This document shows, one piece after another, positions 18,718 through 64,000 of a stretch of 64,000 nucleotides of DNA. The stretch covers positions 4,774,001-4,838,000 of the forward strand of contig OZ024762.1 in the NCBI GenBank assembly GCA_964016885.1, in the 5' to 3' direction. How positions within the stretch are numbered: the first letter of the stretch is position 1; each line of letters opens with the position of its first letter. The notes under the pieces are model-generated. The model was not told the DNA's origin. It did no database searches and saw only the letters and a program-made list of their open reading frames with translations. The stretch is from Eledone cirrhosa. Its lineage: Eukaryota. The translations under genes were made by a program, and so were the position numbers.

Positions 18718-19223
18718 CAAGAACGCCGGAAGTCTCCACTGCTACAGGGTCTACCATAAACCTACCACATGAGCAGGGATGTATTCCGGGGACAAAGAAC
18801 GCCGGAAGTCTCCACTGCTACAGGGTCTACCATAAACCTATCACATGAGCAGGGATGTATTCCGGGGACAAAGAACGCCGGAAGTCTCCACTGCTACAGG
18901 GTCTACCATAAACATATCACATGAGCAGGGATGTATTCCGGGGACAAAGAACGCCGGAAGTCTCCACTGCTACAGGGTCTACCATAAACCTATCACATGA
19001 GCAGGGATGTATTCCGGGGACAAAGAACGCCGGAAGTCTCCACTGCTACAGGGTCTACCATAAACCTATCACATGAGCAGGGATGTATTCCGGGGACAAA
19101 GAACGTCGGAAGTCTCCACTGCTACAGGGTCTACCATAAACCTATCACATGAGCAGGGATGTATTCCGGGGACAAAGAACGCCGGAAGTCTCCACTGCTA
19201 CAGGCTCTACCATAAACCTATCA
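18718..19223 (+). repeat. 76-bp tandem repeat, about 6.6 copies, inside a degenerate LINE-like segment
   Basis: gaacgccggaagtctccactgctacagggtctacc recurs at 18721, 18797 and onward (period 76). Confidence 0.9.
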
Positions 19224-20013: not shown

Positions 20014-23000
20014 ATGGATAAGAAAGCCATAACCGCGGAAATGGTTGAGAAATATTTGAACAATCACCCCACTTTCATCGATGAGTGGTTGAATAGGAAC
20101 AAAATGAGAAGTGACCTTGATGAAAAATACACGAAGAAGACGCTGAGATTTTCAAGCTATGTGGAAAAGATTATGGTGAAACAGAAGAGGGAGAAACGTC
20201 AACTGATTAGCTCTCTGGTGTCGGAAAATGAACTTTTCAGTGAGCTAGTCAAAGACATTACACATGAAATCAATACCAACGCCCTCAGTCACAAAATCTT
20301 GCAGAACATCATTAAATTAACTCACTGCGAACGAGGAAGTTTGTTCTTCATTGAAAAACTAGGAAAAGAGAAATTTTTAGTTTCGAATCTGTTCGACGTC
20401 ACCCCCACCTCAGTAATGTTCGAAACTTTGCGTGAGAAAGAAAATGTTATCCGAATACCTTATGGTAAAGGAATCGTTGGCTACGTGGCCGAAACTAAAT
20501 TAAAAGTTAATATAAGGGATGCTTACCAAGACCCCCGTTTCAACAAAGAGATTGATGAAATGACTGGCTGTCGAACAAAGTGTTTAATTTGTATGCCGAT
20601 TCTAAATTACTGCGATGATGTTATAGGGGTCGCGCAAATCATTAATAAACTTGACGGAGACTATTTCACAGAAAATGACGAAAAGACCTTCGTTGATTAT
20701 TTGTATTTTTGTGGGATTAGTTTGAATAATGCCCAGTTGTTCGAAAAATCAGTCGAAGAATACAAACGAAACCAACAGTTACTGAATTTGGTAGGGGACA
20801 TATGTGCTGAGTACTCTAACTTTATGAGTCTCATTGAAGTTATATTGAGTCGAGCAACAGAAATTCTTGATTGCAGCTATGTTTGTCTTGGTCTTTTAAC
20901 TCCTTCCAAGATGGACGACACCACAGAAAAGGAATTAAATCTTTACGAAATGAAGAATGATGCTCTACAAACAAATACCACACACCCAATCTATAGGAAA
21001 GTGGCCATGGATTTTTTACTAAATGACAAACGTCTGCATATGTATGATATCAAGAATGACAGTTTATTTGAAGGTGGTGATTCTGCGATTCTTAAAAGTA
21101 ACTGTATTGGTGCAATTGCTTTGTTAGACACATCTGAAGAAAAAAATGGTTGCATATTTTTCACAAAGGAGTCAACAGATTTTTTTAACGAGTCTAATTT
21201 TACAACTATGGAGACATTTGGGTTATTCTGTGGCCTGGGAATTCATAACTGTCAAATCTGCTGGTCGACAATTAGGTGTTTAGCACAGCAGCAAATATCA
21301 CACGAAATTTTGTCGTTTCATACAACGGCTGATGAACGAGAAGTGGAGAGGTTTCTGTCGATGGAAAAACGATCTGCCTCTGACTATGGTATATATACAT
21401 TTGCCTTCAATGACCTTTATTATTCCGATGATACAACAGTTATTATCGCGGCACTCATTTTTATTGAAATGAATGCTTTACAGATTTTGGATATTGAGCT
21501 TCCTTTGCTTTACAAGTGGATACTTACAGTGAAGAAGAACTATCGCCCGGTCATCTATCACAACTGGCGACACGGCGTCAACGTGACTCAAAGCTTTTTC
21601 TGTATGCTGACCACTGGAGGTATGAACAAATACTTTTCTAATTTTGAAATGATTGTTGTCCTTATCGCATGTCTTTGCCATGACCTCGACCATAGAGGCA
21701 CTAACAATGACTACGAAGTGAAAACTGCGTCTAAATTAGCCACAATATACAGTTCTTCCACTCTTGAACATCACCATTTTGACCACTGCATAATGATATT
21801 AAACAATGAAAAAACAAACATATTCCAAAACACAGTAGTGCACAATTACAAAATAGCAGTCCATCTTATAGAAAAAGCTATTCTTTCAACAGATCTCACG
21901 CGCTATTTCCAGAATAGGACAGCATTCCAAGAACTCCTTGATAGAAAAGAAACTTTCGAGGAACAGGAAAAGCGCGATCTATTGTTAGCAATGATGATAA
22001 CGGGCGCTGATTTAGCGGCCGTTACAAAACCATGGAATACTCAAAAGAGAACAGCTTTACTAGTGACAGCGGAGTTTTTTGAGTTGGGAGATTTACAGAA
22101 GAATGTGTTAAAGTCGGAAGTTATAGCAATGTTCGACCGTGAAAAGAGGACCGATGTACCAAAATTACAAGTTGGTTTCATTCAGTTTGTATGCATACCA
22201 GTGTTTGAATCTTTACAGACGGTAAACAAAAACTTAATGCCGCTCTATGTGGGTTGTTTGAATAATCTGAAACACTGGGAAGATATAGTTGGCGGTAAAG
22301 AAGAATTTGATATCGATGTCGAGCTTAACAAGACATTAGCTGGGTTTTGGGATTCCGATGAGCCAGAAAGTGCTCGCCAAAGGACTGAGGAACAAAACGT
22401 ATCTCCCTCGCAAGAAGATAAGGATATATCGAAACGAATATCAGGGGGATATATAAAAGGGTATGAACGATTTATTGATTCAGGAAACTCGCCCAAATCT
22501 TTCGGAAGTTTAGATCTTGAACAACCTGGCTATTCTAATTCGGCCATTGCGAACGCGTCGACGTCAAAAATGCTCTCGGCGGCGGCGACGTTGGATGATA
22601 CCAAATATATGATATTCACATCAGATGAAGCAGGGGAGAGAGAATTGGATGAAATCGATGTTGATATTGAAGTAGAAGAGATACGTAGACTGAGAGGAAA
22701 TAAGGTGAACATAAAACAGATAACAGGTGGGCAGGAGATTATGAGAGAATTAACGTATATACAACTCAGTGATCCAATTCCTAGGCGTAAAGAGTCACTG
22801 AGGTCTTATTTAGACGAAATAGAAGAAGAGAGAAAGCATGCCCTGGAGAAGAAGAAAACCAACACGGAGTCGGTTAGTGAAAAAGAAGTGCCCCCAAAAA
22901 TCATTAGACCCTCATACACGGTGATCCCTTCTTATCAAAGATCAAACAAGGATACTTTTTCGACGAACTGTCCATCGAATGATTTATACCAAGAAACTAG

Positions 23001-23142
23001 ATCGGTAGATTCCGCGATTCGTCAAGTGGATCATTCGAAGTGTATAAAAATGTTCAGAGAAAGTAAAAGATGTATGCTAAAGGCTGACATTGATCCTGCC
23101 ACCGATAAGATAGAGAAAAGTGTTATGTGTCTTATTATATAA
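20014..23142 (+). CDS. GAF-domain cyclic-nucleotide phosphodiesterase (PDE5/6/11-like), single-exon, 1042 aa, C-terminal CaaX (CLII); copy 1
   Basis: GAF-A motifs SNLFDV, KGIVGYVAE, DAYQDPRF and QIINK..FTENDE. Catalytic motifs YHNWRH, HDLDHRGTNN, LEHHH, ADLAAVTKPW and LQVGFI. Confidence 0.95.
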   Translation: MDKKAITAEMVEKYLNNHPTFIDEWLNRNKMRSDLDEKYTKKTLRFSSYVEKIMVKQKREKRQLISSLVSENELFSELVKDITHEINTNALSHKILQNIIKLTHCERGSLFFIEKLGKEKFLVSNLFDVTPTSVMFETLREKENVIRIPYGKGIVGYVAETKLKVNIRDAYQDPRFNKEIDEMTGCRTKCLICMPILNYCDDVIGVAQIINKLDGDYFTENDEKTFVDYLYFCGISLNNAQLFEKSVEEYKRNQQLLNLVGDICAEYSNFMSLIEVILSRATEILDCSYVCLGLLTPSKMDDTTEKELNLYEMKNDALQTNTTHPIYRKVAMDFLLNDKRLHMYDIKNDSLFEGGDSAILKSNCIGAIALLDTSEEKNGCIFFTKESTDFFNESNFTTMETFGLFCGLGIHNCQICWSTIRCLAQQQISHEILSFHTTADEREVERFLSMEKRSASDYGIYTFAFNDLYYSDDTTVIIAALIFIEMNALQILDIELPLLYKWILTVKKNYRPVIYHNWRHGVNVTQSFFCMLTTGGMNKYFSNFEMIVVLIACLCHDLDHRGTNNDYEVKTASKLATIYSSSTLEHHHFDHCIMILNNEKTNIFQNTVVHNYKIAVHLIEKAILSTDLTRYFQNRTAFQELLDRKETFEEQEKRDLLLAMMITGADLAAVTKPWNTQKRTALLVTAEFFELGDLQKNVLKSEVIAMFDREKRTDVPKLQVGFIQFVCIPVFESLQTVNKNLMPLYVGCLNNLKHWEDIVGGKEEFDIDVELNKTLAGFWDSDEPESARQRTEEQNVSPSQEDKDISKRISGGYIKGYERFIDSGNSPKSFGSLDLEQPGYSNSAIANASTSKMLSAAATLDDTKYMIFTSDEAGERELDEIDVDIEVEEIRRLRGNKVNIKQITGGQEIMRELTYIQLSDPIPRRKESLRSYLDEIEEERKHALEKKKTNTESVSEKEVPPKIIRPSYTVIPSYQRSNKDTFSTNCPSNDLYQETRSVDSAIRQVDHSKCIKMFRESKRCMLKADIDPATDKIEKSVMCLII

Positions 23143-24210: not shown

Positions 24211-24786
24211 AATAATAATAAAAAGAAAGGTAACAATCAAAAATATTTAAACAATGGGAATTCCTCGATAAAAGACGTTGGAGAGCGACGAGCGTACACT
24301 AAGAGCGGGCTCATTCACTCGGCTCTCTCACGTACCTTTCAACAAACTGTAGTGTTGATGGTGTTAGTTTATGTTGTATGGCATAACAAGATATGGTTCC
24401 AAAATTCCTGAGAGAACCGTAGACGTGACGTATTGACATTCGGCGTTTCCAGGCCTGAATACAACAAATCTATTCCAGAGACGGCGATAGATAGTGAGAG
24501 AATCTAAGTGAGCAAGAGGAAGAATCGACCGTAACTCCTGATAGAGTCTAAGGAGCGCCGTATTGACATACGGCGTTTCTTCCGCATTTTAAGCCCATCT
24601 GTTTTCCTTGCGCCAACTCCAGGTACATTATAAACTTTCTCAGGCCCATATGTGGGCCTAAGGGACGACATTGAGAACCACAAAGAAATAAGTAATTGAG
24701 GGTTTTATATACTCTATCACTTATAGTATGTATGGTCACGTAACTCTTGATAGAATCGTAGGAGTGTCGTATTGACATACAGCGTT

Positions 24787-26529
24787 TCTCCAGGTCTGAC
24801 CCGGTGGAGCCCACCCCTCTCCAGGTCTGACATGGTGGAGTCCATCCCTCTCCAGGTCTGACCTGGTGGAGCCCATCCCTCTCCTGGTCTGACCTGGTGG
24901 AGCCCATCCCTCTCCTGGTCTGACCTGGTGGAGCCCATCCCTCTCCAGGTCTGACCCGGTGGAGCCCATCCCTCTCCTGGTCTGACCTGGTGGAGCCCAT
25001 CCCTCTCCAGGTCTGACCTGGTGGAGCCCACCCCTCTCCTGGTCTGACCTGGTGGAGCCCATCCCTCTCCTGGTCTGACCTGGTGGAGCCCATCCCTCTC
25101 CAGGTCTGACCTGGTGGAGCCCACCCCTCTCCTGGTCTGACCCGGTGGAGCCCATCCCTCTCCTGGTCTGACCTGGTGGAGCCCATCCCTCTCCAGGTCT
25201 GACCCGGTGGAGCCCATCCCTCTCCTGGTCTGACCTGGTGGAGCCCATCCCTCTCCAGGTCTGACCTGGTGGAGCCCACCCCTCTCCAGGTCTGACATGG
25301 TGGAGCCCATCCCTCTCCTGGTCTGACCTGGTGGAGCCCATCCCTCTCCTGGTCTGACCCGGTGGAGCCCATCCCTCTCCTGGTCTGACCTGGTGGAGCC
25401 CATCCCTCTCCAGGTCTGACATGGTGGAGCCCATCCCTCTCCTGGTCTGACCTGGTGGAGCCCACCCCTCTCCAGGTCTGACCCGGTGGAGCCCATCCCT
25501 CTCCTGGTCTGACCTGGTGGAGCCCATCCCTCTCCAGGTCTGACCCGGTGGAGCCCATCCCTCTCCTGGTCTGACCTGGTGGAGCCCACCCCTCTCCAGG
25601 TCTGACCCGGTGGAGCCCATCCCTCTCCTGGTCTGACCTGGTGGAGCCCACCCCTCTCCAGGTCTGACCTGGTGGAGCCCATCCCTCTCCAGGTCTGACC
25701 CGGTGGAGCCCATCCCTCTCCTGGTCTGACCTGGTGGAGCCCATCCCTCTCCAGGTCTGACCTGGTGGAGCCCACCCCTCTCCAGGTCTGACCTGGTGGA
25801 GCCCATCCCTCTCCAGGTCTGACCTGGTGGAGCCTATCCCTCTCCAGGTCTGACCCGGTGGAGCCCATCCCTCTCCTGGTCTGACCTGGTGGAGCCCATC
25901 CCTCTCCAGGTCTGACCTGGTGGAGCCCACCCCTCTCCAGGTCTGACCTGGTGGAGCCCATCCCTCTCCAGGTCTGACCCGGTGGAGCCCATCCCTCTCC
26001 TGGTCTGACCTGGTGGAGCCCATCCCTCTCCAGGTCTGACCCGGTGGAGCCCATCCCTCTCCTGGTCTGACCTGGTGGAGCCCATCCCTCTCCAGGTCTG
26101 ACCCGGTGGAGCCCATCCCTTTCCTGGTCTGACCTGGTGGAGCCCATCCCTCTCCAGGTCTGACCTGGTGGAGCCCACCCCTCTCCTGGTCTGACCTGGT
26201 GGAGCCCATCCCTCTCCAGGTCTGACCCGGTGGAGCCCATCCCTCTCCTGGTCTGACCTGGTGGAGCCCATCCCTCTCCTGGTCTGACCTGGTGGAGCCC
26301 ATCCCTCTCCAGGTCTGACCTGGTGGAGCCCACCCCTCTCCAGGTCTGACATGGTGGAGCCCACCCCTCTCCAGGTCTGACATGGTGGAGCCCATCCCTC
26401 TCCAGGTCTGACATGGTGGAGCCCATCCCTCTCCAGGTCTGACCTGGTGGAGCCCATCCCTCTCCAGGTCTGACATGGTGGAGCCCATCCCTCTCCAGGT
26501 CTGACCTGGTGGAGCCCATCCCTCTCCAG
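24787..26529. repeat. 31-bp minisatellite (CTCTCCAGGTCTGACCTGGTGGAGCCCATCC), about 56 copies
   Basis: Period 31. The same 31-aa repeat appears in all three minus frames, so the long ORFs are artefacts. Confidence 0.95.
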
Positions 26530-26791
26530 ACCCGAGTACAGCAGATTTCTTCCAGAGAAAGATAGAAAGTGAGAGAGAGGAAATGAGAAAGAGATATAGA
26601 GGAAGACTCGACCCCAGTACTAGACTGGTACTTTTTTATCGACCTCAAAAGGATGAAAGGCAAAGTTGACCTCGGTGGGATTTGAACTCGGAGAGCAGTG
26701 AGCCGGAACGAATACCATAAATCCTTCTATCTGACGACCTTAACAACTCTGCCAATTCGCTGCCTAGTTTCTGTTGCATACTTGCTTCTAT

Positions 26792-27105: not shown

Positions 27106-28069
27106 ATACACACACATCCACACACATCCACACATAAACACATACATATAAACACACATACACACACATACATACACACAAACACATACATACACACACA
27201 AACACATACATACACATGCACACAGAAACGTAATACACCCACATACACATACACATATACCACATACGCACATACATATACACACATACACATATACACA
27301 CACATACACACACAGAGATACACACACATGCACACACAAACACATACACGCTCATACATACATACACATACACACACAAACACATACATACACATACACA
27401 CTCATGCATATACACACACACACTCACACCACCCATATTCCTGCTACTAAATATTATGTATAACTGTTAGAGGTGAAGTCTCCCAACAGGATATATGACT
27501 CAACCTTAACTACATCTAAAGCTGCAGTGACTTCATCAAGGAAGGACCTGTATTCGGACTCCTTGTTTGGTGCATAAACTTGCACCACCCACAGAGACCT
27601 ATCTTTCAGCCTGAGCTTCAAAAGGAAAATCCTCCCTCCTAACAGGATACAGTCTATAACATATTCTGAAAGCTGGGAGCTTCAGTATCCCCACTCCCGC
27701 CTGTGCAATCATTTCAGGCGCCACACCTAAACAGTGGAGTTTCCATCCTACATCCAAATCTACAGTATCAGAGCCACAGAACATTGTTGAGGAGACCCCG
27801 ACTATATCTAGCCTGCTCCACTAGTTCCTGCTCCTTATTTGTAAGGGATGTAATGTTCCAGGTTCCAATTGTCAAGGTTTGCTCTCTTCCGGAACCTCTT
27901 TGGGGTCTCAGGATACGCAGGCTTATCGCCAGTTTTTTGCGGCATGAAATGAAGACTGCAATATATTTTTCGAACAGGCCCCTCTCTTGTTCATTATTTA
28001 CATGAAGTACCAGTAATGTACTGGGTAATTGCTGGCCTTGTGCCAATAGTAGAAACAATTATTTACATG

Positions 28070-28910
28070 AACAGGATTGACATGCGCAGCCAAGTTGGAA
28101 GTGGTATCATGACTAGCGGGTATAAAATCAGTCGGCTGGAATTTGCAGACGACATGGTGTTACTTAACTCGACAGAAGGTGATCTCCTACTTGCACTTGA
28201 TAGGTTTGATGCCGAGCGCTGCATGGCTGGAATGAAAATCAGTGCTGCAAAATCTGAGTCACTCGTCCAAAGAAAGCATGCGCAGTGCACTCTATACGTG
28301 AAAGCAGTTCCACTGAAGCAGGTAGAGAAGTTCAAGTATCTCGGGGCCGTGTTCACGAGTGATGGAAGGCAGGAGGCTGAATTAAGTGCAAGAATTGCAA
28401 AAGCTGGTGCAGTAAGGCACCACCTTCATCATTCGGTAATCAGAAGAAGGGAGGTTGGTGTATAAGCCAAAATCGCTATCTTCAATTCGGTATTCGCGCC
28501 AACCCTTAACTATGGTCATGATTCTTGGGTAATGACCGAAAGAATTCAATCGTGAATACAAGCGGCCGGAATGGAGTTTCCTCCAAAGGGTTTTACTTGA
28601 TAAAGTGCGTAGCTCGGAGATCAGAGAGTTACTCCAGGTAGAGTCGCTACTAATCCGAATTGATAGATCACAGCTCGGACATGTGGTTAAAATGTCTCAG
28701 GAAAGAATCGCTGATTTTACGAGCAAAAACCAACCAGCAGGATACCCGGGGATAGATCCCGAGCAAGTTGGTTGGATAACGTCCATTGATTGGCTGGTCT
28801 CGCTTGGGGATCCAGCTGGAGACAGCTGGAGACGGTTGCTTCTGACAGGACCCGCTGGAGGGAGTGTTTTAGGACTCTGCCTCCACGACCCTCTCAGGAA
28901 TAAGTGGGAT
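28070..28910 (+). mobile_element. RTE-clade LINE 3' fragment
   Basis: LEFADD, GMKISAAKSE, LKQVEKFKYLG and IRELLQVES..GHVVKM, with stops and frameshifts. Confidence 0.8.
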
Positions 28911-31668: not shown

Positions 31669-33039
31669 AATAATATATTTTAGGGGAAGACAAAATGAAT
31701 TTGAAATTAACACAGAACATACATACATACATATATATATACATACAAACATACATACACACATGCATGAATGCATACATACACACATACGTACATACAC
31801 ACATGCATACATACATACATACATACATACATACATACATACATACGTACATACATACATACATACATACATACATACATACATACATACAGGCATACAT
31901 GGTGGCTGCCAACTCGTTTTCGAGTATGGCCACTACTCTATATCCATGTAGGAGAACCCCTACCGATGCGCTGAACGAGTGTGACTTTTTAGTCCAGCCA
32001 GCGACTTGAAAACTCTGGTACAAACACTACACTTGTGACAATTACTGACACATAGTGCTGGGCTCATGGTACCATGTGAGGACAAGTGCAGGGAGATCTC
32101 CAGATATAAAGCAATGCCTGTGCCGTGAAGCTTTTATAGTGAGCAAAGGCACTGCACAAAGCCAGTCCCACTCTCTTAACCAAGATGATATTTACCAAAA
32201 AGAAGAACAAGTCAACATCATTGGATACCATCAGAGTTGCAGGTGTTATATCAGAGTTTTCCTTCTCCTAGAATTCTGCCTTGACAAAGGCTAAGGGCTC
32301 ATCTCTCCCGGTGATTTTGGATGGCCATTGACTCCTTTGCCCTTTGACAGGTTTTGTTTTTAGTCCTGCAGGATGGTCCAAAGTCACCCTCCTCACCAAG
32401 AAACCTTGGTGGGGCTGCCAGTTTAGTCGCCAACGACCCGACCATGAGACAGGTTGTACTGGGATACATGTTACCAGTAGCACCAGCTGGTGACCTGACA
32501 TACATACATACATACATACATACATACATACATACATACATACACAAACACATGTATACATACATACGTACATTCATATTTACATACATGTATACAAACA
32601 TACATATACACACATACATAACTGACACTCTGTCTGTTACGACGATGAGTGTTCCAGTTGATCCTATCAATCGAACAACCTACTCGTAAAATTACTGAGC
32701 AAATGGCTGGGCATTCCACAGACACGTGTACCCTTAACATAGATGTCAGGGAGAACGTGACAAGGCTGGCCCTTCGAATTACAGGTACAGCTCATTGTTG
32801 CCAGCTGAGTGGACTGGAACAACATGAAATAAGTAAGCCTGATAAACCAACAACAAAGCGACGTGTCTTCACATACATACATACATACACACACACGCAT
32901 ACACATATATGTACATACATACATACATATATACATACACACACACATATATATACATACATACATACACACATACGAACACATACATACTTACATAGAG
33001 AAGCTGTCTTCTGTGCTAATTTCAGCCATAGAGGCCGTC

Positions 33040-34739
33040 CAACATGCTAAAGTCCCAGACATTATTGTCAGAGCCATAGAGAAGCTGTCTTCTGTGCTAA
33101 TTTCAGCCATAGAGGCCCTCCAACATGCTAAAGTCCCAGACATTATTGTCAGAGCTGTAGAGAAGCTGTCTTCTTCTTGGGCTACTATCCTAAGGTTAAA
33201 GACAGAGAGGGAGGACTCTATTTTCACTGATAAAATAAAATATCGCAGGGGTGTATTTCAGGGAAACAGTCTCTCTGTGATATTATTCATTCTGTCATTA
33301 AACCCCATGTCCTTTCTGATCAAGAAATGTGAAGGATACATCATTGGCTCACAGGAAGACAGAAATACGAACCTAACCCATAATTTCTTTGTGGATGATC
33401 TGAAACTCTATGCCAAGAACATGGATGGGATGAAGAAAACGCGTAACCAGGGAATACTACACCCGATTAAGAAAGATTTGGTCATCGGAACTCTCTGCGC
33501 AAAACAAAACAGTGGCTCACAATGTGTTTTCTGTGCCTGTCCTAATACCAACATTTGGAATACTCAATTGGACGATAGACGAAATCCGAGCAGTTGATGT
33601 TAGAACTCGAAAAATACTAAACAACATCGGAAACTTCCACATCAACAGTGACATAGACCGCCTTTACTTGAAACGTAAGCAGAGAGGCAGAGGTTTAACA
33701 TCACTCCAGACAGCATTTGAATGTCGCATCATATCCCTCCGACAACATCTACGAACCTCGAAGCGTAGGAACCCGTTTCTCAAGCAAGTCTATCTGCATG
33801 AAACAGATAAGATCATGAGAGTTGGGAAGGAACTCCTCGAGAGTTATTCCCTGTGTGATAATCAAAAACTCACACCCAGGGATGTCGCTCAGCAGTATCG
33901 CAGTGAATCCTTGGACGAAAAACTGCATGCTTATCAGTAAAAAATCATGCATGGATATATTGCCAGGAAGCTCCAGAGTGAGAGTAATATAGATAAGAAA
34001 AGTAGTCTATCTTGGACCAACAACCGCTATATTGGCTCCCACTTTGAAGGATACGCTTTTGCAATCCAACAACAGGAAATCAACACGAAATACCTGATTC
34101 ACAAAAGAGATAGGGATGCAGGCAAAACACCTAGATGTGATAACAAGTGCAGACTCTGCAGAATTAACATCGAAGATGTCACCCATGTCATCAGCAGCTG
34201 CCCAAAGATGCCATCGCGGTACTATCTACCTATGAGGCATGATATAGTGGCCAAAACACTATACAATGCAATCCGTAGAAAAGATAGACCCGATAATAAA
34301 CACATTTAAAAGCTACAGCAATGTGGAAGGCATCCATATACATAATATGAAAGAGTACTGGTGGAATGTTCCAGTAAAAACCCCAATAAAATGCAGGCAT
34401 AACAGACCAGATATTATGATATGGGACAGGGAGAAGAAAACATGCACAGTAGTGGAAATTAGCTGCCAAGCAGATGCCAATATATCAAAGATTAGCGAAA
34501 AGAAGAATATTTATGCAGAACCGATGAGAAATCTGCAGATACTCCACCCTGATTACACCTTCAGATTTATGTCTGTGATTATTGAGGCACTGGGATATGT
34601 TAGTAACTGCCTCAATACAAATCTTGAGAAGCTAGGCTTCACAGGAACAGAAAGAACACAACTAGTTAGGAAATTACAAGTACAATCCATTAATGGAACA
34701 GTAAAAATATGTAAAACATTCCAAAAATGTTGCATCTAA
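33040..34739 (+). mobile_element. R4/Dong-like (restriction-like endonuclease) non-LTR retrotransposon fragment, frameshifted
   Basis: RRGVFQGNSLS, FFVDDLKLY, RLYLKRKQRGRGL, CRLC..HVISSC, RHD and WWN..HNRPDI..VEIS. Flanked by (TACA)n. Confidence 0.8.
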
Positions 34740-35527: not shown

Positions 35528-38500
35528 TTATGAAATCGAACAGATATTTTTTGTCACAACCTCTTCAGGCGTTTTTCGGGAGAGGATAGAAAATTTTGAT
35601 TGGTACATTGGAACCTGCTTCATAAGTTTCCTTTTTCTATTTACATCAAGTTCTCTCATTGCCTTGGCAGAAATCCTTGCTTTTTCTTCGGCACTCATCT
35701 CCTCATATATGGGTTTGGGAAGCTCAGGTGTGCAATTTTCTAGTAAATCGCTGTTCGAAGAATAAGACCGGATCAGTTGATTGCTTAAATCAAACTTCGT
35801 TTCATCTACCTCAGAAACGGACTTAACCGAGGGTGATCTCTTTCTAAATAGTTGCTGCTCCAGTAATGAGTGGTTAAACGCCTCGCTTTCTTTGTACTCT
35901 GTATCTGATTGCAGTTCGTCTTCACTTTTACTTGTCGGCAATGCTTGTTGAAAATATATCTTTCTCTCTTTTAAGAATGAACCTGATAATTTCACATTAC
36001 TTTCCGATGCTTTACTAGATAGAAAACCATTGGGTTCTAAGGCCATTATCTCCAAATTCCCATTTAGTGTGTAAGCACTTTCATTAGTAGGGATTAGTGC
36101 ATTTCTTCCTCCCATACGTAGTTCAGTATAATCGATTTTAGTTTGGGTGGTTTTCGAGATTTTTTCTTTAAAAATATCTATACTGAAAGTCAGAAGTTTT
36201 CTAGACGAATATATATCATATTCGTTATCGGTTTGACAAGAATTTTCACGCGTAGTTTTTTTCTCACCTTTGACCTTGGGGAAAATTAATGTAGTTTGCG
36301 TAGCAATAGATACAGATAATATCATACGATCATGGTAATTAAGGATGAACGGTGAACTCTTCGAAGATATCCGCCTTTTTAACTCTGGGTTTTTACTGAA
36401 AATAATCTCAAATTCAAAATCAATGTCAAAATGTTCCAAACCTGCCACTATATTCGACCAATGAGTTCTGTTATCCAGCAACCCCTCATAAAGAAAGGTA
36501 AATTTCTCTTCTACTTCAGATAGCAGATGAAAAATCGGAACACATGCAAAATCAATAAACCCAACATGCATTTCAGGAAATTTGTACCTATTTTCCAAAT
36601 CCATGAGAGCTGTAACTTCATGGTCTAACTTTTTCTCTTCGTCTCCCTGTTCGTAGAATTCAGCTGCAATATTAATTGCGTTTGACTTTTGAATTTCCCA
36701 TGGTCTGGTAAGAGCTGAAAGATCACATGCTGTCATCGAAATATTCATTAGTAAATCAGAATCTTCTGGAGTGTCAAATGTCTTATCTCCGCGTTCGATT
36801 TTCTCTCTAAAAGCTACAATTTCTTTAAAATGCCGTTGCAAATCTGTAGCTAGAATGGCTTTTTCGATAAATTTAAGGCCGTGTTGGTAATCTTTGGTCG
36901 AGACATTCCGAAATATATCTGTACCAGCAGTGTTTAACAACCTGATAGCCGTATCTATATGATGATGTTCCAACACCGACGTATGATATAATACAGTAAA
37001 AGGAGATGATGTCTTCGCTAGAAATGCATTATTTTTCCCTCTGTGATCAAGATCATGTAATAAGCAAGCAACCAATAAGCAGATATGTTCAAATTCTGTG
37101 AAACATAATTTCATTAAGGGAGCTCGCAAGAGACACAACATCATTTGAAATACCATTAAACCATGGTGCCAATTGTGGTAAGTATTTGGACGATAGTTCT
37201 TCTTAGCAGTTAAAATAAACCTGTATAAAATATCAATCGGTATATTTAATATAGTTAATGCTTTCTTCTCAATAAACCCCTGCGCACACAACAAAACTGT
37301 TTCCTCGTCTGAATACTTTGTCGCATTGAAATCCCGTGAATATAACTGGTACTCTTCCGAAGTAAGTCGATTTAATTTTAAGAAATGCTTTAAAAGCTTT
37401 AGATCACAAGTGGTATGATGAGTTAGTATTTCTTTCATTACGTCTCCTTGAATTGTCAACCTAACAGAACGTTCGTATAAGTGGGAATTATAAATGCTAA
37501 CTCCACAGATAAATGCAAATATCTCCATTATATTGATATCGCTTTTGCTGACAACTTCGTTGTCATTTCTAACAAATACTAAACAGCCAATAACCTCACA
37601 AAGTGCATTTGTTATTTTCATACAAAGTAACCAGTTACTCGCATCTCCTTTTACAGTAATTAACATTTCACTTGAGCCTCTGTCTAATATTACAGTTTCG
37701 ATTATGTTCGAACTTTTCATAGCCGTTTCAATTGTTCTGACATATTTTTTATTTAACGGGACTTCAGTCACTTCTACTTCATTTCTTAATAACTGAAAAG
37801 CTGTTGTGTATTTCGTCGGAGAGATCATATCATTCCCCTTATCTGCCAAATAAAGACAAATCTTGCTACAATCTAACATAACCATGGCATTTTGAAGGAT
37901 TTCTGATATAAGTTTTCGAAAATTATTTTGTTCTTTTAGAACATATCTGGTCAGTTTTAGTAATAACTGGTGACGTTTAGATTCCTCCACTGATGTTTTT
38001 AACAACTGTTCATTGTTAATACTGATTCCACAAAAAGATAGAAAACTCTTAAATATGCTTTCATCATGTAAATCGAACTTTCCACCATTTTTCTTGTTCA
38101 ATACTTGAGCTACACCTATTACGATGCCTTGTCTATCAGTAATCGGTGTAGTGAGAATACTCACTGTATGAAATCCTGTTGCGTTATCGATATCAGGTAG
38201 AAAACGTGCATCGTGGTAGGCATCATTAATGTTTAACGTGCAATTATTTTCAGCTACATATCCCACAAATCCTTTCCCCATTGGAATACGAATGGCATTT
38301 TCTTCTGTGTGAAGTGTTTCTTCCAAAACCGAAGTGGCTGTAACGTCAAAGAGTATGGAGACAAGGTTTAATTGTTTAGCCGTTCCACGTAACAGAAAAA
38401 GGCTTCCTCTCTCACAGTTAAGTATTTTACAAGTATTTTGAAGAACTTTGTGACATAATTTATTTACATTCAATTCGAAAATATCTTTTATAAATTCTCT

Positions 38501-40498
38501 ATATGTTTCATTTTCTGTTGCTGCTGTAACTAATACGCTGTCGTTTAACTTAGTTTTAAGTGAAGCAGTTGATTGTGAAGATAGCTGAGATTCTCTACTG
38601 CTGGTCACATTTTCTGTTGCTGCTGCAACTAATACGCTGTCGTATAACTTAGTTTTAAGTGAAGCAGTTGATTGTGAAGATAGCTGAGATTCTCTACTGC
38701 TGGTCACATTTTCTGTTGCTGCTGCAACTAATACGCTGTCGTATAACTTAGTTTTAAGTGAAGCAGTTGATTGTGAAGATAGCTGAGATTCTCTACTGCT
38801 GGTCACATTTTCTGTTGCTGCTGCAACTAATACGCTGTCGTATAACTTAGTTTTAAGTGAAGCAGTTGATTGTGAAGATAGCTGAGATTCTCTACTGCTG
38901 GTCACATTTTCTGTTGCTGCTGCAACTAATACGCTGTCGTATAACTTAGTTTTAAGTGAAGCAGTTGATTGTGAAGAGAGCCGAGATTCTCTACTGCTAG
39001 TCATATTTTCTGTTGCTGCTGCAACTAATACGCTGTCGTTTAACTTAGTTTTAAGTGAAGCAGTTGATTGTGAAGAGAGCCGAGATTCTCTACTACTGGT
39101 CACATTTTCTGTTGCTGCTGCAACTAATACGCTGTCGTATAACTTAGTTTTAAGTGAAGCAGTTGATTGTGAAGAGAGCCGAGATTCTCTACTGCTAGTC
39201 ATATTTTCTGTTGCTGCTGCAACTAATACGCTGTCGTTTAACTTAGTTTTAAGTGAAGCAGTTGATTGTGAAGAGAGACGAGATTCTCTACTACTGGTCA
39301 CATTTTCTGTTGCTGCTGCAACTAATACGCTGTCGTATAACTTAGTTTTAAGTGAAGCAGTTGATTGTGAAGAGAGCCGAGATTCTCTACTGCTAGTCAT
39401 ATTTTCTGTTGCTGCTGCAACTAATACGCTGTCGTTTAACTTAGTTTTAAGTGAAGCAGTTGATTGTGAAGAGAGCCGAGATTCTCTACTACTGGTCACA
39501 TTTTCTGTTGCTGCTGCAACTAATACGCTGTCGTATAACTTAGTTTTAAGTGAAGCAGTTGATTGTGAAGAGAGCCGAGATTCTCTACTGCTAGTCATAT
39601 TTTCTGTTGCTGCTGCAACTAATACGCTGTCGTTTAACTTAGTTTTAAGTGAAGCAGTTGATTGTGAAGAGAGCCGAGATTCTCTACTACTGGTCACATT
39701 TTCTGTTGCTGCTGCAACTAATACGCTGTCGTATAACTTAGTTTTAAGTGAAGCAGTTGATTGTGAAGAGAGCTGAGATTCTCTACTGTTAGTCATATTT
39801 TCTGTTGCTGCTGCAACTAATACGCTGTCGTATAACTTAATTTTAAGTGAAGCAGTTGATTGTGAAGAGAGCTGAGATTCTCTACTGTTAGTCATATTTT
39901 CTGTTGCTGCTGCAACTAATACGCTGTCGCATAACTTAATTTTAAGTGAAGCAGTTGATTGTGAAGAGAGCTGAGATTCTCTACTGTTAGTCATATTTTC
40001 TGTTGCTGCTGCAACTAATACGCTGTCGTATAACTTAATTTTAAGTGAAGCAGTTGATTGTGAAGAGAGCTGAGATTCTCTACTGCTGGTCACATTTTCT
40101 GTTGCTGCTGTAACTAATACGCTGTCGTATAACTTAGTTTTAAGTGAAGCAGTTGATTGTGAAGAGAGCCGAGATTCTCTACTGCTGGTCACATTTTCGG
40201 TTGCTGCTGTAACTAATACGCTGTCGTTTAATTTAGTTTTAAGTGAAGCAGTTGATTGTGAAGAGAGCCGAGATTCTCTACTGCTGGTCACATTTTCTGT
40301 TGCTGCTGCAACTAATACGCTGTCGTTTAATTTAGTTTTAAGTGAATCAGTTGATTGTGAAGATAGCTGAGATTCTCTACTGCTAGTCACATCGTCTGTT
40401 AACGACTGTTGCTGACGCCATTCCCTAACGAAATCTGGGTTGTTCTGCAAGAAATGTTCAACTTCTTCTTTACTAAGTTCTTCCTTTTTTTGCTCCAT
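35528..40498 (-). CDS. GAF-domain PDE5/6/11-like phosphodiesterase, single-exon, about 1656 aa, with 19 x 33-aa N-terminal repeats and CaaX (CSIS); copy 2
   Basis: First ATG at 40498 (the track start 40522 is GTG). Motifs SILFDV, QVLNKK..FDLHDE, YHNWHH, HDLDHRGKNN, CDLSALTRPW and EMHVGFI. Confidence 0.93.
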   Translation of the reverse strand: MEQKKEELSKEEVEHFLQNNPDFVREWRQQQSLTDDVTSSRESQLSSQSTDSLKTKLNDSVLVAAATENVTSSRESRLSSQSTASLKTKLNDSVLVTAATENVTSSRESRLSSQSTASLKTKLYDSVLVTAATENVTSSRESQLSSQSTASLKIKLYDSVLVAAATENMTNSRESQLSSQSTASLKIKLCDSVLVAAATENMTNSRESQLSSQSTASLKIKLYDSVLVAAATENMTNSRESQLSSQSTASLKTKLYDSVLVAAATENVTSSRESRLSSQSTASLKTKLNDSVLVAAATENMTSSRESRLSSQSTASLKTKLYDSVLVAAATENVTSSRESRLSSQSTASLKTKLNDSVLVAAATENMTSSRESRLSSQSTASLKTKLYDSVLVAAATENVTSSRESRLSSQSTASLKTKLNDSVLVAAATENMTSSRESRLSSQSTASLKTKLYDSVLVAAATENVTSSRESRLSSQSTASLKTKLNDSVLVAAATENMTSSRESRLSSQSTASLKTKLYDSVLVAAATENVTSSRESQLSSQSTASLKTKLYDSVLVAAATENVTSSRESQLSSQSTASLKTKLYDSVLVAAATENVTSSRESQLSSQSTASLKTKLYDSVLVAAATENVTSSRESQLSSQSTASLKTKLNDSVLVTAATENETYREFIKDIFELNVNKLCHKVLQNTCKILNCERGSLFLLRGTAKQLNLVSILFDVTATSVLEETLHTEENAIRIPMGKGFVGYVAENNCTLNINDAYHDARFLPDIDNATGFHTVSILTTPITDRQGIVIGVAQVLNKKNGGKFDLHDESIFKSFLSFCGISINNEQLLKTSVEESKRHQLLLKLTRYVLKEQNNFRKLISEILQNAMVMLDCSKICLYLADKGNDMISPTKYTTAFQLLRNEVEVTEVPLNKKYVRTIETAMKSSNIIETVILDRGSSEMLITVKGDASNWLLCMKITNALCEVIGCLVFVRNDNEVVSKSDINIMEIFAFICGVSIYNSHLYERSVRLTIQGDVMKEILTHHTTCDLKLLKHFLKLNRLTSEEYQLYSRDFNATKYSDEETVLLCAQGFIEKKALTILNIPIDILYRFILTAKKNYRPNTYHNWHHGLMVFQMMLCLLRAPLMKLCFTEFEHICLLVACLLHDLDHRGKNNAFLAKTSSPFTVLYHTSVLEHHHIDTAIRLLNTAGTDIFRNVSTKDYQHGLKFIEKAILATDLQRHFKEIVAFREKIERGDKTFDTPEDSDLLMNISMTACDLSALTRPWEIQKSNAINIAAEFYEQGDEEKKLDHEVTALMDLENRYKFPEMHVGFIDFACVPIFHLLSEVEEKFTFLYEGLLDNRTHWSNIVAGLEHFDIDFEFEIIFSKNPELKRRISSKSSPFILNYHDRMILSVSIATQTTLIFPKVKGEKKTTRENSCQTDNEYDIYSSRKLLTFSIDIFKEKISKTTQTKIDYTELRMGGRNALIPTNESAYTLNGNLEIMALEPNGFLSSKASESNVKLSGSFLKERKIYFQQALPTSKSEDELQSDTEYKESEAFNHSLLEQQLFRKRSPSVKSVSEVDETKFDLSNQLIRSYSSNSDLLENCTPELPKPIYEEMSAEEKARISAKAMRELDVNRKRKLMKQVPMYQSKFSILSRKTPEEVVTKNICSIS
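38509..40390 (-). repeat. 99-bp coding tandem repeat, 19 copies, within PDE copy 2
   Basis: taatacgctg at 38531, 38630 and onward (period 99). Unit SSRESQLSSQSTASLKTKLNDSVLVAAATENVT. Confidence 0.95.
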
Positions 40499-48564: not shown

Positions 48565-51500
48565 ATGCTGCGCTCGAGGTCAAGTGGAATCGACGATATG
48601 GAACAAACAAAAAAGAAAGAACTTAAAAAAGAAGAAGTTGAACGCTTCTTACAGAGAAACCCAGGTTTCGTTAAGAGACGGCGTCAGCTACAGTCGTTAG
48701 AAGAAACGGCTAGAAGAGAATCTCAGCTATCTTCACAATCAACTGCTTCACTTAAAACTAAGTTAAACGACAGCGTATTAGTTACATCAGCAACAGAAAA
48801 TGAAACATATAGAGAATTTATAAAAGATATTTTCGAATTGAATGTAAATAAATTATGTCACAAAGTTCTTCAAAATACATGTAAAATACTTAACTGTGAG
48901 AGAGGAAGCCTTTTTCTGTTACGTGGAACGGCTAAACAATTAAACCTTGTCTCCATACTCTTTGACGTTACAGCCACTTCGGTTTTGGAAGAAACACTTC
49001 ACACAGAAGAAAATGCCATTCGTATTCCAATGGGGAAAGGATTTGTGGGATATGTAGCTAAAAATAATTGCATGTTAAACATTAATGATGCCTACCACGA
49101 TGCACGTTTTCTACCTGATATCGATAAAAAAACAGGATTTCATACCGTGAGTATTCTCACTACACCGATTACTGATAAACAAGGCATCGTAATAGGTGTA
49201 GCTCAAGTATTGAACAAGAAAAATGGTGGAAAGTTCGATTTACATGATGAAAGCATATTTAAGAGTTTTCTATCTTTTTGTGGAATCAGTATTAACAATG
49301 AACAGTTGTTAAAAATGTCAGAGGAGGAATCTAAACGTCACCAGTTATTACTAACACTGACCAAATGTATTCTAAAAGAACAAAATAATTTTCGAAAACT
49401 TATATCAGAAATCCTTCGAAATGCCATGGATATTTTAGATTGTAGCAAGATTTGTCTTTATTTAGCAGATAAGGGGAATGATACGATCTCTCCGACGAAA
49501 TACACAACAGCTTTTCAGTTATTAAGAAATGAAATAGAAGTGGCTGAAGTCCCGTTAAATAAAAAATATATGAAAGTAATTGAAACGATTATGAAAAGTT
49601 CGAACATTATCGATAATGTAATAATACAAAGAGGCTCAAGCGAAATGTTAATTACTGTAAAAGGTGTTGCGAGTAACTGTTTACTTTGTATGAAAATAAC
49701 AAATGCACTTTGTGAGGTTATTGGCTGTTTAGTATTTGTTAGAAATGACAACGAAGTTGTCAGCAAAAGCGATATCAATATAATGGAGATATTTGCATTT
49801 ATCTGTGGACTTAGTATTTATAATTCCCACTTATACGAACGTTCTGTTAGGTTGACAATTCAAGGAGACATAATGAAAGAAATACTAACTCATCATACCA
49901 CTTGTGATCTAAAGCTATTAAATCATTTCTTAAAATTAAATCGACGCACTTCGGAAGAGTACCAGCTATATTCACGGGATTTCAATGCGACATTGTATTC
50001 AGAGGAGGAAACAGTTTTGTTGTGTGCGCAGGGGTTTATTGAGAAGAAAGCATTAAATATATTAAATATACCGATTGATATTTTATACAGGTTTATTTTA
50101 ACTGCTAAGAAGAACTATCGTCCAAATACTTACCACAATTGGCACCATGGTTTAATGGTATTTCAAATGATGTTGTGTCTCTTGCGAACTCCCTTAATGA
50201 AATTATGTTTCACAGAATTTGAACATATCTGCTTATTGGTTGCTTGCTTATTACATGATCTTGATCACAGAGGGAAAAATAATGCATTTCTAGCGAAGAC
50301 ATCATCTCCTTTTACTGTATTATATCATACGTCGGTGTTGGAATATCATCATATAGATAGAACTATCAGGTTGTTAAACACTGCTGGTACAGATATATTT
50401 CGGAATGTCTCGACCAAAGATTACCAACACGGCCTTAAATTTCTCGAAAAAGCCATTCTAGCTACAGATTTGCAACGACATTTTAAAGAAATTTCAGCTT
50501 TTAGAGAGAAATTCGAACGCGTTGATAAAACGTTTGACACTCCAGAAAATTCTAATTTACTAATGAATATTTTGATGACAGCATGTGATCTTTCAGCTGT
50601 TACCAGACCATGGGAAATTCAAAAGTCAAATGCAGTTAGGCTTGCGGCTGAATTCTACGAACAGGGAGACGAAGAGAAAATGTTAGATCATAAAGTTACA
50701 GCTCTCATGGACCGTGAAAAGAAACACAGTTTTCCTGAACTGCAAGTCGGGTTTATTGATTTTGTATGTATTCCGCTTTATCGTCTGCTATCTGAAGTAG
50801 AAGCGAAATTTACCTTTCTTTATGAGGGGTTGATGGATAACAGAACTCATTGGGCGAATATAGCCTCAGGTTTGGAACCTTTTGACATTGATTTGGAATT
50901 TGCGATTGTTTCCAAAATGGGGGGACACAAGAAAGGTATATATTCTAAGGTAAAACCTCAATCACACTTTAAAAACCGGAATGCATCAACCTCTAGTTTT
51001 TCTGCTCAAACTTCATTCATTCTGGATGAGGTTGGGGATGAGCAACCATCAGGTTCAGATCTGTGTGATAAAACATGTCAAACTGTGCATCATACGGCTC
51101 CAGTAGCAAAATACAAACGTATTTCTCTTTTAGACGCCCTAGGGAATTTTTATGGTGAAAAACTTCTGAAAGCCAAGGTGATGCCATTTAACGTAATCTC
51201 TATGAACACTAATAAAGATTCACAGGCGGGCTTTGCAGAAGATGATGCTGGGCACGTCGCACCGAAACGGGGTGGGGTTCATAATTTACAGAAAACGAAT
51301 GAATTTAAAAATTCAAATGCTAAACTGTCCTCTATTACTGAAAAATCACCGACAGCCGGGGAATCAAATAATAAAACACGGTTATCTTCTTCGACGGGTC
51401 AAACTGGAGATAATATACTCACTTCATCAGAGAAAGCAAAAGAACATTTCGAAGTTCTAAAGGAATCAATAAAACATATGGAAAACAAAACGACTCGCGG

Positions 51501-51690
51501 GGAACTAAATGTATGTTTATTGAGTGAGGAAGAAAAAGACGTTATAGCTATGAACGCCAAGGAGGGTCTTAATCCATACAGGAAAAGGAAATGTTTAAAG
51601 AAAGTTAGTCAGCGCAATATAATTGGCGATAGAACGAAAATGCCATTATACAATGATGGTTTAGAAAAGAGCGTGTGCACAATTTCATGA
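48565..51690 (+). CDS. GAF-domain PDE5/6/11-like phosphodiesterase, single-exon, 1041 aa, CaaX (CTIS); copy 3
   Basis: Core near-identical to copy 2. Motifs YHNWHH, HDLDHRGKNN, CDLSAVTRPW and ELQVGFI. An alternative start at Met 48598 aligns with the copy 2 start. Confidence 0.95.
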   Translation: MLRSRSSGIDDMEQTKKKELKKEEVERFLQRNPGFVKRRRQLQSLEETARRESQLSSQSTASLKTKLNDSVLVTSATENETYREFIKDIFELNVNKLCHKVLQNTCKILNCERGSLFLLRGTAKQLNLVSILFDVTATSVLEETLHTEENAIRIPMGKGFVGYVAKNNCMLNINDAYHDARFLPDIDKKTGFHTVSILTTPITDKQGIVIGVAQVLNKKNGGKFDLHDESIFKSFLSFCGISINNEQLLKMSEEESKRHQLLLTLTKCILKEQNNFRKLISEILRNAMDILDCSKICLYLADKGNDTISPTKYTTAFQLLRNEIEVAEVPLNKKYMKVIETIMKSSNIIDNVIIQRGSSEMLITVKGVASNCLLCMKITNALCEVIGCLVFVRNDNEVVSKSDINIMEIFAFICGLSIYNSHLYERSVRLTIQGDIMKEILTHHTTCDLKLLNHFLKLNRRTSEEYQLYSRDFNATLYSEEETVLLCAQGFIEKKALNILNIPIDILYRFILTAKKNYRPNTYHNWHHGLMVFQMMLCLLRTPLMKLCFTEFEHICLLVACLLHDLDHRGKNNAFLAKTSSPFTVLYHTSVLEYHHIDRTIRLLNTAGTDIFRNVSTKDYQHGLKFLEKAILATDLQRHFKEISAFREKFERVDKTFDTPENSNLLMNILMTACDLSAVTRPWEIQKSNAVRLAAEFYEQGDEEKMLDHKVTALMDREKKHSFPELQVGFIDFVCIPLYRLLSEVEAKFTFLYEGLMDNRTHWANIASGLEPFDIDLEFAIVSKMGGHKKGIYSKVKPQSHFKNRNASTSSFSAQTSFILDEVGDEQPSGSDLCDKTCQTVHHTAPVAKYKRISLLDALGNFYGEKLLKAKVMPFNVISMNTNKDSQAGFAEDDAGHVAPKRGGVHNLQKTNEFKNSNAKLSSITEKSPTAGESNNKTRLSSSTGQTGDNILTSSEKAKEHFEVLKESIKHMENKTTRGELNVCLLSEEEKDVIAMNAKEGLNPYRKRKCLKKVSQRNIIGDRTKMPLYNDGLEKSVCTIS

Positions 51691-62090: not shown

Positions 62091-64000
62091 ATGGTTGATG
62101 AGCTTACACGAGAAGATGTGGAAACATTTTTCGAAGAAAATCCTGAATTCCTTAAAAAATATGCAAGTAAGAATAAAATACCACCTTCAGCATTATCATT
62201 TATCGAACACCTTCAATTAATTCTTAGTCGAAAAATAGCCTACCAAACGCAAAGGAGCAGTGTGATTTCCGAATTCGAGACTTACAGAGAAATACTCAAG
62301 GAATTCGCTTCCGAACTCAATGAGGATAGACTGTGCTACGTAATTCTTCAAAACACATGTATCTTACTCAATTGTGACAGCGCCAATATTTTCGTGGCTC
62401 GAGGTACTGATAATAACCGTTATCTTATTTCTAAATATATAGGTGTCACTTCTAATTCACAACGAACCGAAAGTCAGTATAAAGGACTCAATCCCATTCG
62501 CATACCATTCGGTAAAGGAATTGTAGGCTATGTAGCTGAAACTAAGCGTACCTTAAAAGTCACTGATGTTGCCAATTCTGAATATTATAAAATGGTTGAT
62601 GTAAAATCTTTCACACCTAATGCCAAAAGTATTCTTTCTATGCCAATTTTAAATAAAAGCGGGAAGGTGATGGGGGTAGCTCAGGTAATGAACTATGACG
62701 AAAATTCCGATTTTTCTTCAGAAGATGAAGCTTTATTTGCGAACTTACTGTCCTTTTGTGGAATCGGTATAGAGACTGTTTATTTGTTCCAAGTTTGTAC
62801 TGAGGAAGCCAGGCGCAACGCGTTATTACTTAAACTCACGGATTGCATTCTGAAAGTACAAAACAATCTACCGAAGCTTATATCTGAAATTCTACAACAA
62901 GCTATGGAGATGTTAGACTGCCGTAATATATGTGTCTATTTGTGTGACAAAACCAAAGGGACAGTCGAGCCTAAGAAGAACTCTAAAGTGTTTCAATTAT
63001 TAAGAGATGAAAACAATATGGAGGAGGTAACAATAGACAGCAGATTTATAAAGCATCTTGAAAGCAATTTGAAAAGTGAGAATATATTCGATATTTTCGA
63101 TTTAAAAACATATGCTGATGTCTCGGTTTCAGATGAGGATAATATCGAAAGTTGGTTACTTTGTATGGCAATAAAGGATGCCAAAGGAAATACAATTGGT
63201 TCGATAATGTTTATTAGAGATTCCAAGGACATATTCAGTGAAAATGATATCAATATGATAAAAACGTTTGCATCGGTTTGTGGTTTGAGTATTTTCAACT
63301 GTCGCCTGTACGAGACTTCAGTTAATTTGTTGGAACAGGCGAAAATAACTAACGATAGACTTGCTTATCACACAATATGCCATATGAAAACTGTTGAAAG
63401 ATACCGTTCAATGAAGTTGAAGTCTGCAGAAGAATATCAAATCTACAGTTTTGACTTCGATGATTCTTTATATAAAGAGGAAGACGGTGTTTTATTGTGT
63501 GTACTGATGTTTTTAAAACTTGACGTTGTAAATATATTGAATATATCTCAAAATTTTTTATACAGGTTTATTCTAACGGTTAAAAAGAACTATCGTCCGG
63601 TTGCCTACCATAATTGGCGCCATGCTTTAAACGTTACACAAACAATGTTCTGCATGTTAACTACAGGCCACGTAGGTAATTACTTTACACAATTTCAACA
63701 GATCTGCTTGTTAATGGCTTGTATGTTTCATGATCTTGATCACCGGGGACAGAACAATTCGTTTCAAGTGAAGATAGCCTCTTCTATTGCTACACTGTAC
63801 GGTACATCTGTATTGGAACACCACCATCTTGACCGGGGTATGATGATTCTGAATAATACTGGAACTAATATCTTTCAAAATCTTCCCGCAGAACAATACC
63901 AGCTTGGTCTCAAATTAATCGAGAAAGCAATCTTAGCTACCGACCTCATGAATTATTTTTCACGAATAAACATTTTTAAACATGAAGTAGAAAGCGGTCA
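62091..64000 (+). CDS. GAF-domain PDE5/6/11-like phosphodiesterase, single-exon so far, truncated by the window end; copy 4
   Basis: Manual translation from ATG 62091 is open to the end: MVDELTREDVETFFEENPEF..IRIPFGKGIVGYVAET..KKNYRPVAYHNWRH..HDLDHRGQNN..LEHHHLD..EKAILATDL. Confidence 0.9.
   Translation, partial: MVDELTREDVETFFEENPEFLKKYASKNKIPPSALSFIEHLQLILSRKIAYQTQRSSVISEFETYREILKEFASELNEDRLCYVILQNTCILLNCDSANIFVARGTDNNRYLISKYIGVTSNSQRTESQYKGLNPIRIPFGKGIVGYVAETKRTLKVTDVANSEYYKMVDVKSFTPNAKSILSMPILNKSGKVMGVAQVMNYDENSDFSSEDEALFANLLSFCGIGIETVYLFQVCTEEARRNALLLKLTDCILKVQNNLPKLISEILQQAMEMLDCRNICVYLCDKTKGTVEPKKNSKVFQLLRDENNMEEVTIDSRFIKHLESNLKSENIFDIFDLKTYADVSVSDEDNIESWLLCMAIKDAKGNTIGSIMFIRDSKDIFSENDINMIKTFASVCGLSIFNCRLYETSVNLLEQAKITNDRLAYHTICHMKTVERYRSMKLKSAEEYQIYSFDFDDSLYKEEDGVLLCVLMFLKLDVVNILNISQNFLYRFILTVKKNYRPVAYHNWRHALNVTQTMFCMLTTGHVGNYFTQFQQICLLMACMFHDLDHRGQNNSFQVKIASSIATLYGTSVLEHHHLDRGMMILNNTGTNIFQNLPAEQYQLGLKLIEKAILATDLMNYFSRINIFKHEVESG

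Follow-up and report, generated by a model that had tools for sequence, protein, structure and literature searches.

Introduction

The role of the purine-binding glutamine of class I phosphodiesterases (PDEs), the subject of the 'glutamine switch' debate, has so far been probed mainly by engineered mutants. In PDE9, Q453E raises Km(cGMP) from 0.113 to 2.8 µM, with kcat cut by half and selectivity down from 337 to 29, and PDE5A Q817A, cited second-hand in the same source, shows ~60x weaker cGMP affinity with cAMP kinetics unaffected; turnover is kept in Q817A and Q453E at 60x and 25x lower cGMP affinity, respectively (kinetic data as given in PMC3069055). Engineered PDE5A Q817A and PDE9A Q453E, and the natural DdPDE2, are all class I enzymes that lack the glutamine and still hydrolyse substrate. 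We take DdPDE2 to be RegA. Among the 24 kinetically characterised PDEs in S4 Fig of PMC5617230, Gln is found in 23 and Ala in DdPDE2, a label that is not used in the available sections of a Dictyostelium review (PMC11988041).

Here we analyse a window of 64,000 nucleotides of Eledone cirrhosa DNA (GCA_964016885.1, contig OZ024762.1, positions 4,774,001 to 4,838,000 of the forward strand; all positions below are counted from its first letter) in which one of several PDE genes, copy 2, carries histidine in place of this glutamine. Like Q817A, Q453E and DdPDE2, copy 2 is a class I PDE without the Gln; unlike them, it is an animal GAF-PDE with a natural His that lies beside a 90%-identical Gln sister, copy 3. 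Human PDE5A (7faq, 1t9s and 3hc8) was the best PDB match of copy 2 (E 3e-67, fold TMq 0.89). Copy 2 resembles PDE5A in its metal site and in the residues at the Phe820, Gln775 and Ala767 positions, and departs from it at the positions of Gln817 (His), Val782 (Ile), Ile768 (Leu) and Asn620 (Met), in being intron-less, and in having one Pfam GAF domain, a 19x N-terminal array and a CaaX-like end. Most of the best non-cephalopod matches were invertebrate PDE5/6 (Drosophila Pde6, molluscan 'cGMP-specific PDE'), most of which share one fingerprint with Gln; the window genes lie on a long separate branch (support 1.0). The C-terminus of Drosophila Pde6 is CaaX-like, as in the window copies. The closest relatives of copies 2 and 3 are Octopus genes of two types, A (P0002/P0005) and B (P0003/P0004), at 45-57% identity; like the window pair they are paired and have homogenised GAF regions, and the B copies also lack the Gln.

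These Octopus copies carry automatic names only, and we found no study of them in the literature searched. The same search, with subscription journals and bioRxiv supplements outside its coverage, returned neither a description of a cephalopod PDE5/6 expansion nor a natural Gln-to-His class I PDE; it also returned no Gln-to-His mutant of any PDE, and nothing on sea-urchin sperm PDE5 and pH. The His copy 2, its Gln sister copy 3 and relatives with Glu and Met form a natural series in which residue function and release from selection could be tested, and point to a cephalopod PDE5/6 expansion; if the series reflects only relaxed constraint in a redundant duplicate, its significance would be modest.

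Results

Copy 2 is a class I PDE with histidine at the glutamine position

Copy 2 is an intron-less open reading frame (ORF) of 1656 aa on the minus strand (35528..40498, read from 40498 to 35528 without interruption), comprising, in order, an N-terminal helix, a repeat array, a GAF region, a class I PDE domain and a tail with the CaaX-like end CSIS. The PDEase_I domain (PF00233; aa 1107-1338, 36485..37180, minus strand) scored 238.2 bits against a curated cut-off of 24.8 (E 1.4e-70). All eight metal and catalytic residues are kept (H1108, H1112, H1148, D1149, H1152, E1177, H1180 and D1259, corresponding to the conserved metal-pocket series H,H,H,D,H,E,H,D listed in PMC5617230), which bears out the initial annotation, in which the metal ligands were read as intact. 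Structure modelling, which had been proposed as a check, gave an AlphaFold2 model of the domain (47-row alignment, mean pLDDT 91.1) with a predicted all-helical PDE catalytic fold, and the best Foldseek match of this model was PDE5 (TMq 0.89, rmsd 1.8). By domain, fold and metal site, copy 2 is a class I PDE, and it would be expected to operate as PDE5/6-type enzymes do.

The hallmark purine-binding Gln is replaced in copy 2 by His1311, encoded by the minus-strand CAT at 36568-36566 (plus-strand ATG, 36566-36568) within the local sequence FPEMHVGFIDF. The ORFs confirmed both this codon and the Gln residues that the annotation had read in copy 1 (CAA 22168-22170, Gln719) and copy 3 (CAA 50743-50745, Gln727). 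The His allele contains ATGCAT, an NsiI site lacking in the Gln allele and in copy 3. In a phmmer search against the PDB the copy-2 His fell opposite the PDE5A Gln within KIPSMQVGFID; counting from query 30 = chain 560 across two one-residue gaps places the His (query 285) at residue 817, a register that agrees with the earlier assignment to Gln817 and rules out a misalignment. A pseudogene reading is disfavoured, as the ORF contains neither stop nor frameshift. A-to-I editing reads A as G and could convert CAT only into CGT (Arg), and for this reason rescue of the Gln by RNA editing was ruled out.

The hydrophobic purine clamp is present in copy 2. Phe1314 (36557..36559), the purine-stacking residue equivalent to PDE5A Phe820, is kept, and Ile1277 (36668..36670) occupies the clamp position of PDE5A Val782, which is Ile also in the Octopus Glu copies and Leu in copy 3. 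Gln1270 (36689..36691) preserves the Gln775 position, which is Glu in the Octopus Glu copies. A second copy-2-specific change, Leu1301 (36596..36598), lies 10 residues ahead of the His and adjoins the M-loop, in a column that is Arg in copy 3 and in 119/119 homologs from outside the cluster (these four codons, like the His codon, are on the minus strand).

Copy 2 belongs to a cluster of four intron-less genes resembling cGMP-PDEs. The plus strand carries copy 1 (20014..23142, 1042 aa), a distant paralog at ~42% identity, and copy 3 (48565..51690, 1041 aa), the inverted sister of copy 2. The initial annotation had counted three PDE copies; a fourth, an open intron-less ORF of at least 636 aa on the plus strand (62091..64000), begins at 62091 and leaves the window ahead of the pocket. 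The nearest relative of copy 4 is P0132 (62%). GAF and PDEase_I domains were detected by Pfam in all three complete copies, each with a single GAF stretch (aa 679-827 in copy 2, 38018..38464, minus strand, near-identical to copy 3). PDE5/6 enzymes have GAF-A and GAF-B in tandem ahead of the catalytic domain; in the window copies a region of GAF-B size aligns, below score. All three complete copies have CaaX-like C-termini, CLII (23128-23139), CSIS (35531-35542) and CTIS (51676-51687) in copies 1 to 3, suggesting that their products may be prenylated.

Between the N-terminal helix and the GAF of copy 2 sits an in-frame 99-bp x 19.1 array (38509..40400, minus strand; 19 copies), whose 33-aa unit is 36% Ser/Thr, has no stops and has expanded from one that occurs once in copy 3. 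Its variants are 6 synonymous at 25 sites vs 8 non-synonymous at 74 sites, numbers too small to be decisive. The array presumably corresponds in location to the PDE5A phosphorylation segment.

The glutamine is nearly invariant and has probably been lost repeatedly within a cephalopod-type expansion

At 37-57% identity, proteins of Octopus vulgaris, O. bimaculoides, O. sinensis and Argonauta are the best named relatives of the window genes, and ordinary invertebrate PDE5/6 come next. Three copies each in O. vulgaris and O. bimaculoides lie, within each species, on contigs of equal length, consistent with a conserved gene cluster. In a rooted FastTree tree, the four window genes, the Octopus and Argonauta copies and six further proteins fell on one side of a long branch (support 1.0); in a catalytic-domain tree built by a quick method, in which long branches meet, 12 of them were separated from ordinary invertebrate PDEs with an SH-aLRT of 99. 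The rooted tree nested the expansion beside molluscan PDE5/6, and the best sequence matches bear PDE5/6 names; with the long branches of the quick tree, a place within PDE5/6 rather than PDE11 is tentative. For copy 1 a relative at 82% identity exists (P0136), and the nearest relatives of copies 2 and 3 are only 50-57% identical, a hint that evolution has been much faster in the inverted pair.

The initial annotation had treated the Gln as conserved in class I PDEs. This holds for the homologs compared from outside the expansion: of 122 domains extracted we dropped three (two second partial domains and one distant PDE), and the Gln817 column is Gln in all 119 remaining non-cluster homologs. 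Within the expansion, 4/18 members covering the column lack it (vs 0/119 others), namely copy 2 (His), O. vulgaris P0003 and O. bimaculoides P0004 (both Glu) and P0147 (Met). Because these members and DdPDE2 differ at the position, 'invariant' is, on present alignments, nearly but not strictly true. His, Glu and Met likely represent three separate losses, and their recurrence makes an artefact in copy 2 less likely while also making the copy-2 case less unique. The copy-2 His is thus real in the sequence and, on the members compared here, is one instance among several losses in a PDE5/6-like expansion that evolves fast, not a lone oddity.

The non-Gln relatives differ among themselves. P0003 and P0004 keep all metal residues and are changed also at 612, 775, 820 and 821. 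Their equivalents at these sites (Glu at 817, Glu775, Phe612, Tyr820 and Phe821) are conserved in the two species. By alignment, the rebuilding of the Octopus B pocket is stronger than that of copy 2. P0147, which has Met in place of the Gln, lacks two of the eight catalytic residues (both His) and looks like a candidate pseudo-phosphodiesterase. Its helix-14 motif is also broken, and its tail is long and charged.

Of the 75 columns without variation among the 119 homologs, copy 2 deviates at 19 and copy 3 at 17, so that a change in an 'invariant' column is not rare for copy 2; only three of its departures, at 1301, 1311 and 1323, are specific to it relative to copy 3. For the Gln column to be struck on both the copy-2 and the Octopus-B branch, the chance was 0.003 if that column is named beforehand, vs 0.19 for any one invariant column.

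The ortholog check suggested for the His codon lent it no support. No His-bearing ortholog was present among the homologs found, 0/402 short candidates passed, and none of the 6 cluster-type proteins examined among 146 new matches of a wider homolog search carries His. The Octopus genes with a copy-2-type tail carry Gln, and orthology thus gives no confirmation of the His, which for these reasons may be recent, private or an error.

The pocket has drifted along the lineage

We compared 15 pocket positions with human PDE5. Copies 1, 2 and 3 match it at 11 each and the Octopus B copies at 7 and 5, the Octopus A/C/D and Argonauta copies match at 12-15 (0-3 differences), and 106/119 non-cluster homologs have one common fingerprint with Gln. 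Copy 2 differs at 620, 768, 782 and 817 and so departs from the cGMP-specific PDE5-type pocket; copy 1, in which the Gln is kept, still differs at 4/15 positions. Pocket drift is, in these comparisons, a trend of the lineage (copies 2 and 3 and the Octopus B copies differ at 4, 4, 8 and 10 positions), and no pocket-specific enrichment was found in copy 2, in which 4/15 pocket positions vs 38/123 conserved columns are changed. The cAMP-type Asn of the PDE4/7/8 enzymes (PDE4B N395, PDE5A 767 position, with its Tyr-Asp support) is absent from copy 2, which has Ala1262 and Met1115, and a clean switch to cAMP is therefore not indicated.

Copies 2 and 3 share a probable history of gene conversion

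Copies 2 and 3 are divergently oriented and share 90% protein identity over 731 residues. A 2203-bp tract of copy 2 (36397..38599) is 95.05% identical, inverted, to 48712-50914 of copy 3 and is likely a gene-conversion tract. Identity of the two copies is 93-99%, falling to 86% and 77% over the pocket and to ~45-54% in the tail. The Octopus A/B pair shows the same homogenised pattern over a shorter tract, suggesting long-running concerted evolution of the GAF region in both pairs. Between copies 2 and 3 dN/dS is ~0.85 over 731 codons (25.8 synonymous and 84.2 non-synonymous differences), which places them, on this estimate, under weak net constraint; with dN/dS near 1, relaxation and mixed selection fit equally.

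Segment trees gave differing affinities along the gene. By their tails, copy 2 goes with Octopus A, which keeps Gln, and copy 3 with B, which has Glu (bp-RELL 0.945). At the start of the catalytic domain, B is the nearest type for both window copies (p-AU 0.91), joining A is rejected (0.028), and a tree of separate species pairs is not rejected (p-AU 0.13). Copies 2 and 3 form a clade in 4/4 segment trees, supported at 93/92 for the pocket segment after removal of the His column; for that segment ((copy 2, B), copy 3) is not rejected (p-AU 0.10 and 0.25). A swap model, joining copy 2 to Octopus B and copy 3 to A across the pocket, was rejected (p-AU 0.036 and 0.028). A single step leads from a Gln codon to either the His or the Glu codon, and two steps lie between these last, so that separate changes are the shorter path, and on this evidence an origin of the copy-2 His shared with the Octopus Glu copies is disfavoured. 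We propose that an old A/B paralog pair was homogenised from its N-terminus by gene conversion, that copy 2 would be the A locus by its tail while carrying a catalytic domain nearest the B type, and that Gln changed to His in copy 2 probably after the last exchange of this segment with copy 3.

Copy 2 is best explained as an active enzyme of low cGMP affinity

The initial annotation had offered altered nucleotide specificity, a low-affinity enzyme, or a pseudo-enzyme or regulatory heterodimer partner. The second is best supported by published kinetics, and its premise, that mutating the Gln strongly weakens cGMP affinity, agrees with the ~60x loss in Q817A (PMC3069055, second-hand there). From the mutant kinetics we infer that copy 2 is an intact GAF class I PDE that is active, binds cGMP more weakly and selects less for cGMP over cAMP, an account to which we attach about an even chance. 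The two metals would still activate water and hydrolyse the cyclic phosphate, with the base held by Phe1314 and Ile1277. His1311 could offer one hydrogen bond and would lack the two-point amide contact to guanine, and a ~10-60x rise in Km(cGMP) is expected for this reason, while kcat should stay within a few-fold and the handling of cAMP should alter little, an effect size extrapolated from Ala and Glu mutants of other PDE families. Copy 2 would then come into play only where local cGMP is high, alongside a copy 3 of higher affinity, and loss of the Gln would be tolerated since pocket constraint has loosened in this fast-evolving branch of the PDE5/6 expansion. Compared with this account, both a pseudo-enzyme and a new specificity are less likely.

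A possible if unlikely alternative is that the His is near-silent, a ring nitrogen replacing one hydrogen bond and the enzyme behaving much like copy 3. Gln to His is a single base change and chemically moderate, and the clamp residues and the Gln775 position are kept in copy 2; an Ala variant (DdPDE2) also stands among the active PDEs characterised in S4 Fig of PMC5617230. Set against this are the presence of Gln in every non-cluster homolog and the finding, in the PDE9 kinetics of PMC3069055, that even an isosteric Glu alone costs 25x in cGMP affinity.

Lower in our estimate is a pseudo-enzyme or regulatory subunit, which would have little turnover, pair with copy 3 through its GAF region, contribute the Ser/Thr-rich array and damp the dimer. 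The GAF regions of copies 2 and 3, at 78-100% identity in 50-residue windows, are compatible with such pairing; the 19x array is found in copy 2 alone, a second change falls at an invariant Arg, and the degenerate P0147 of the same expansion has Met at the Gln position. [quoted passage not shown]

More doubtful again is adaptive re-tuning, by which His in copy 2 (and Glu in Octopus) would have been selected for a new substrate (cAMP, cIMP, cUMP or cCMP) or for a pH-gated pocket, for example in sperm. Within a single expansion the Gln has been replaced along what are likely three branches, on two of them by a residue with a titratable side chain; two species have the Octopus Glu in common, accompanied by changes at 612, 775 and 820; and the both-branch value of 0.003 would be low had the column been chosen beforehand. 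That value is 0.19 for any invariant column, an outcome that differs between branches (His, Glu, Met) is more in keeping with release than with convergence, and copy 2 has neither the cAMP-type Asn at the 767 position nor pocket enrichment. In the O. sinensis testis tables of PMC11202624, the testis DEGs include 14 of the 28 genes annotated as PDE (2.55 expected, p 4.1e-5) and one cGMP-PDE-like gene is testis-only (13.93 vs 0), but these genes are not tied to the cluster and the parent GO row has p 0.58; we treat a testis role for copy 2 as a lead only. A fuller version, in which repeated rebuilding to a titratable residue (His; Glu in Octopus) yields a prenylated, possibly sperm-expressed PDE that is pH-gated or acts on a non-canonical nucleotide and pairs with a Gln twin with which gene conversion of the GAF domains keeps it compatible, strikes us as improbable.

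Equally improbable is an assembly error or a private or segregating allele of no fixed biological meaning: the codon is one A-to-T difference from that of copy 3, no relative found has the His and the exact protein is absent from the collection searched, but the 13,125 coding bases of the four ORFs, the 19-unit array included, contain no stop or frameshift, the base lies outside any homopolymer, neighbouring codons have several other copy-2-specific changes, and two Octopus genomes, independent of each other, also lack Gln at this site.

Other features of the locus

Upstream of their presumed starts, at a distance of 35-50 bases, copies 2 (~40545, minus strand) and 3 (~48530, plus strand) have in common the context of an out-of-frame ATG, ATGAAAACC, which may be a uORF or the remnant of a splice acceptor. 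Between the PDE genes lie a minisatellite that is G+C-rich and has several open frames, a tandem array of 76 bp and reverse-transcriptase-like fragments (together 24548-26726, 18694-19223, 27953-28465, 32833-34739 and 55045-57291), the last of these elements resembling, as judged by eye, the LINE/Penelope type.
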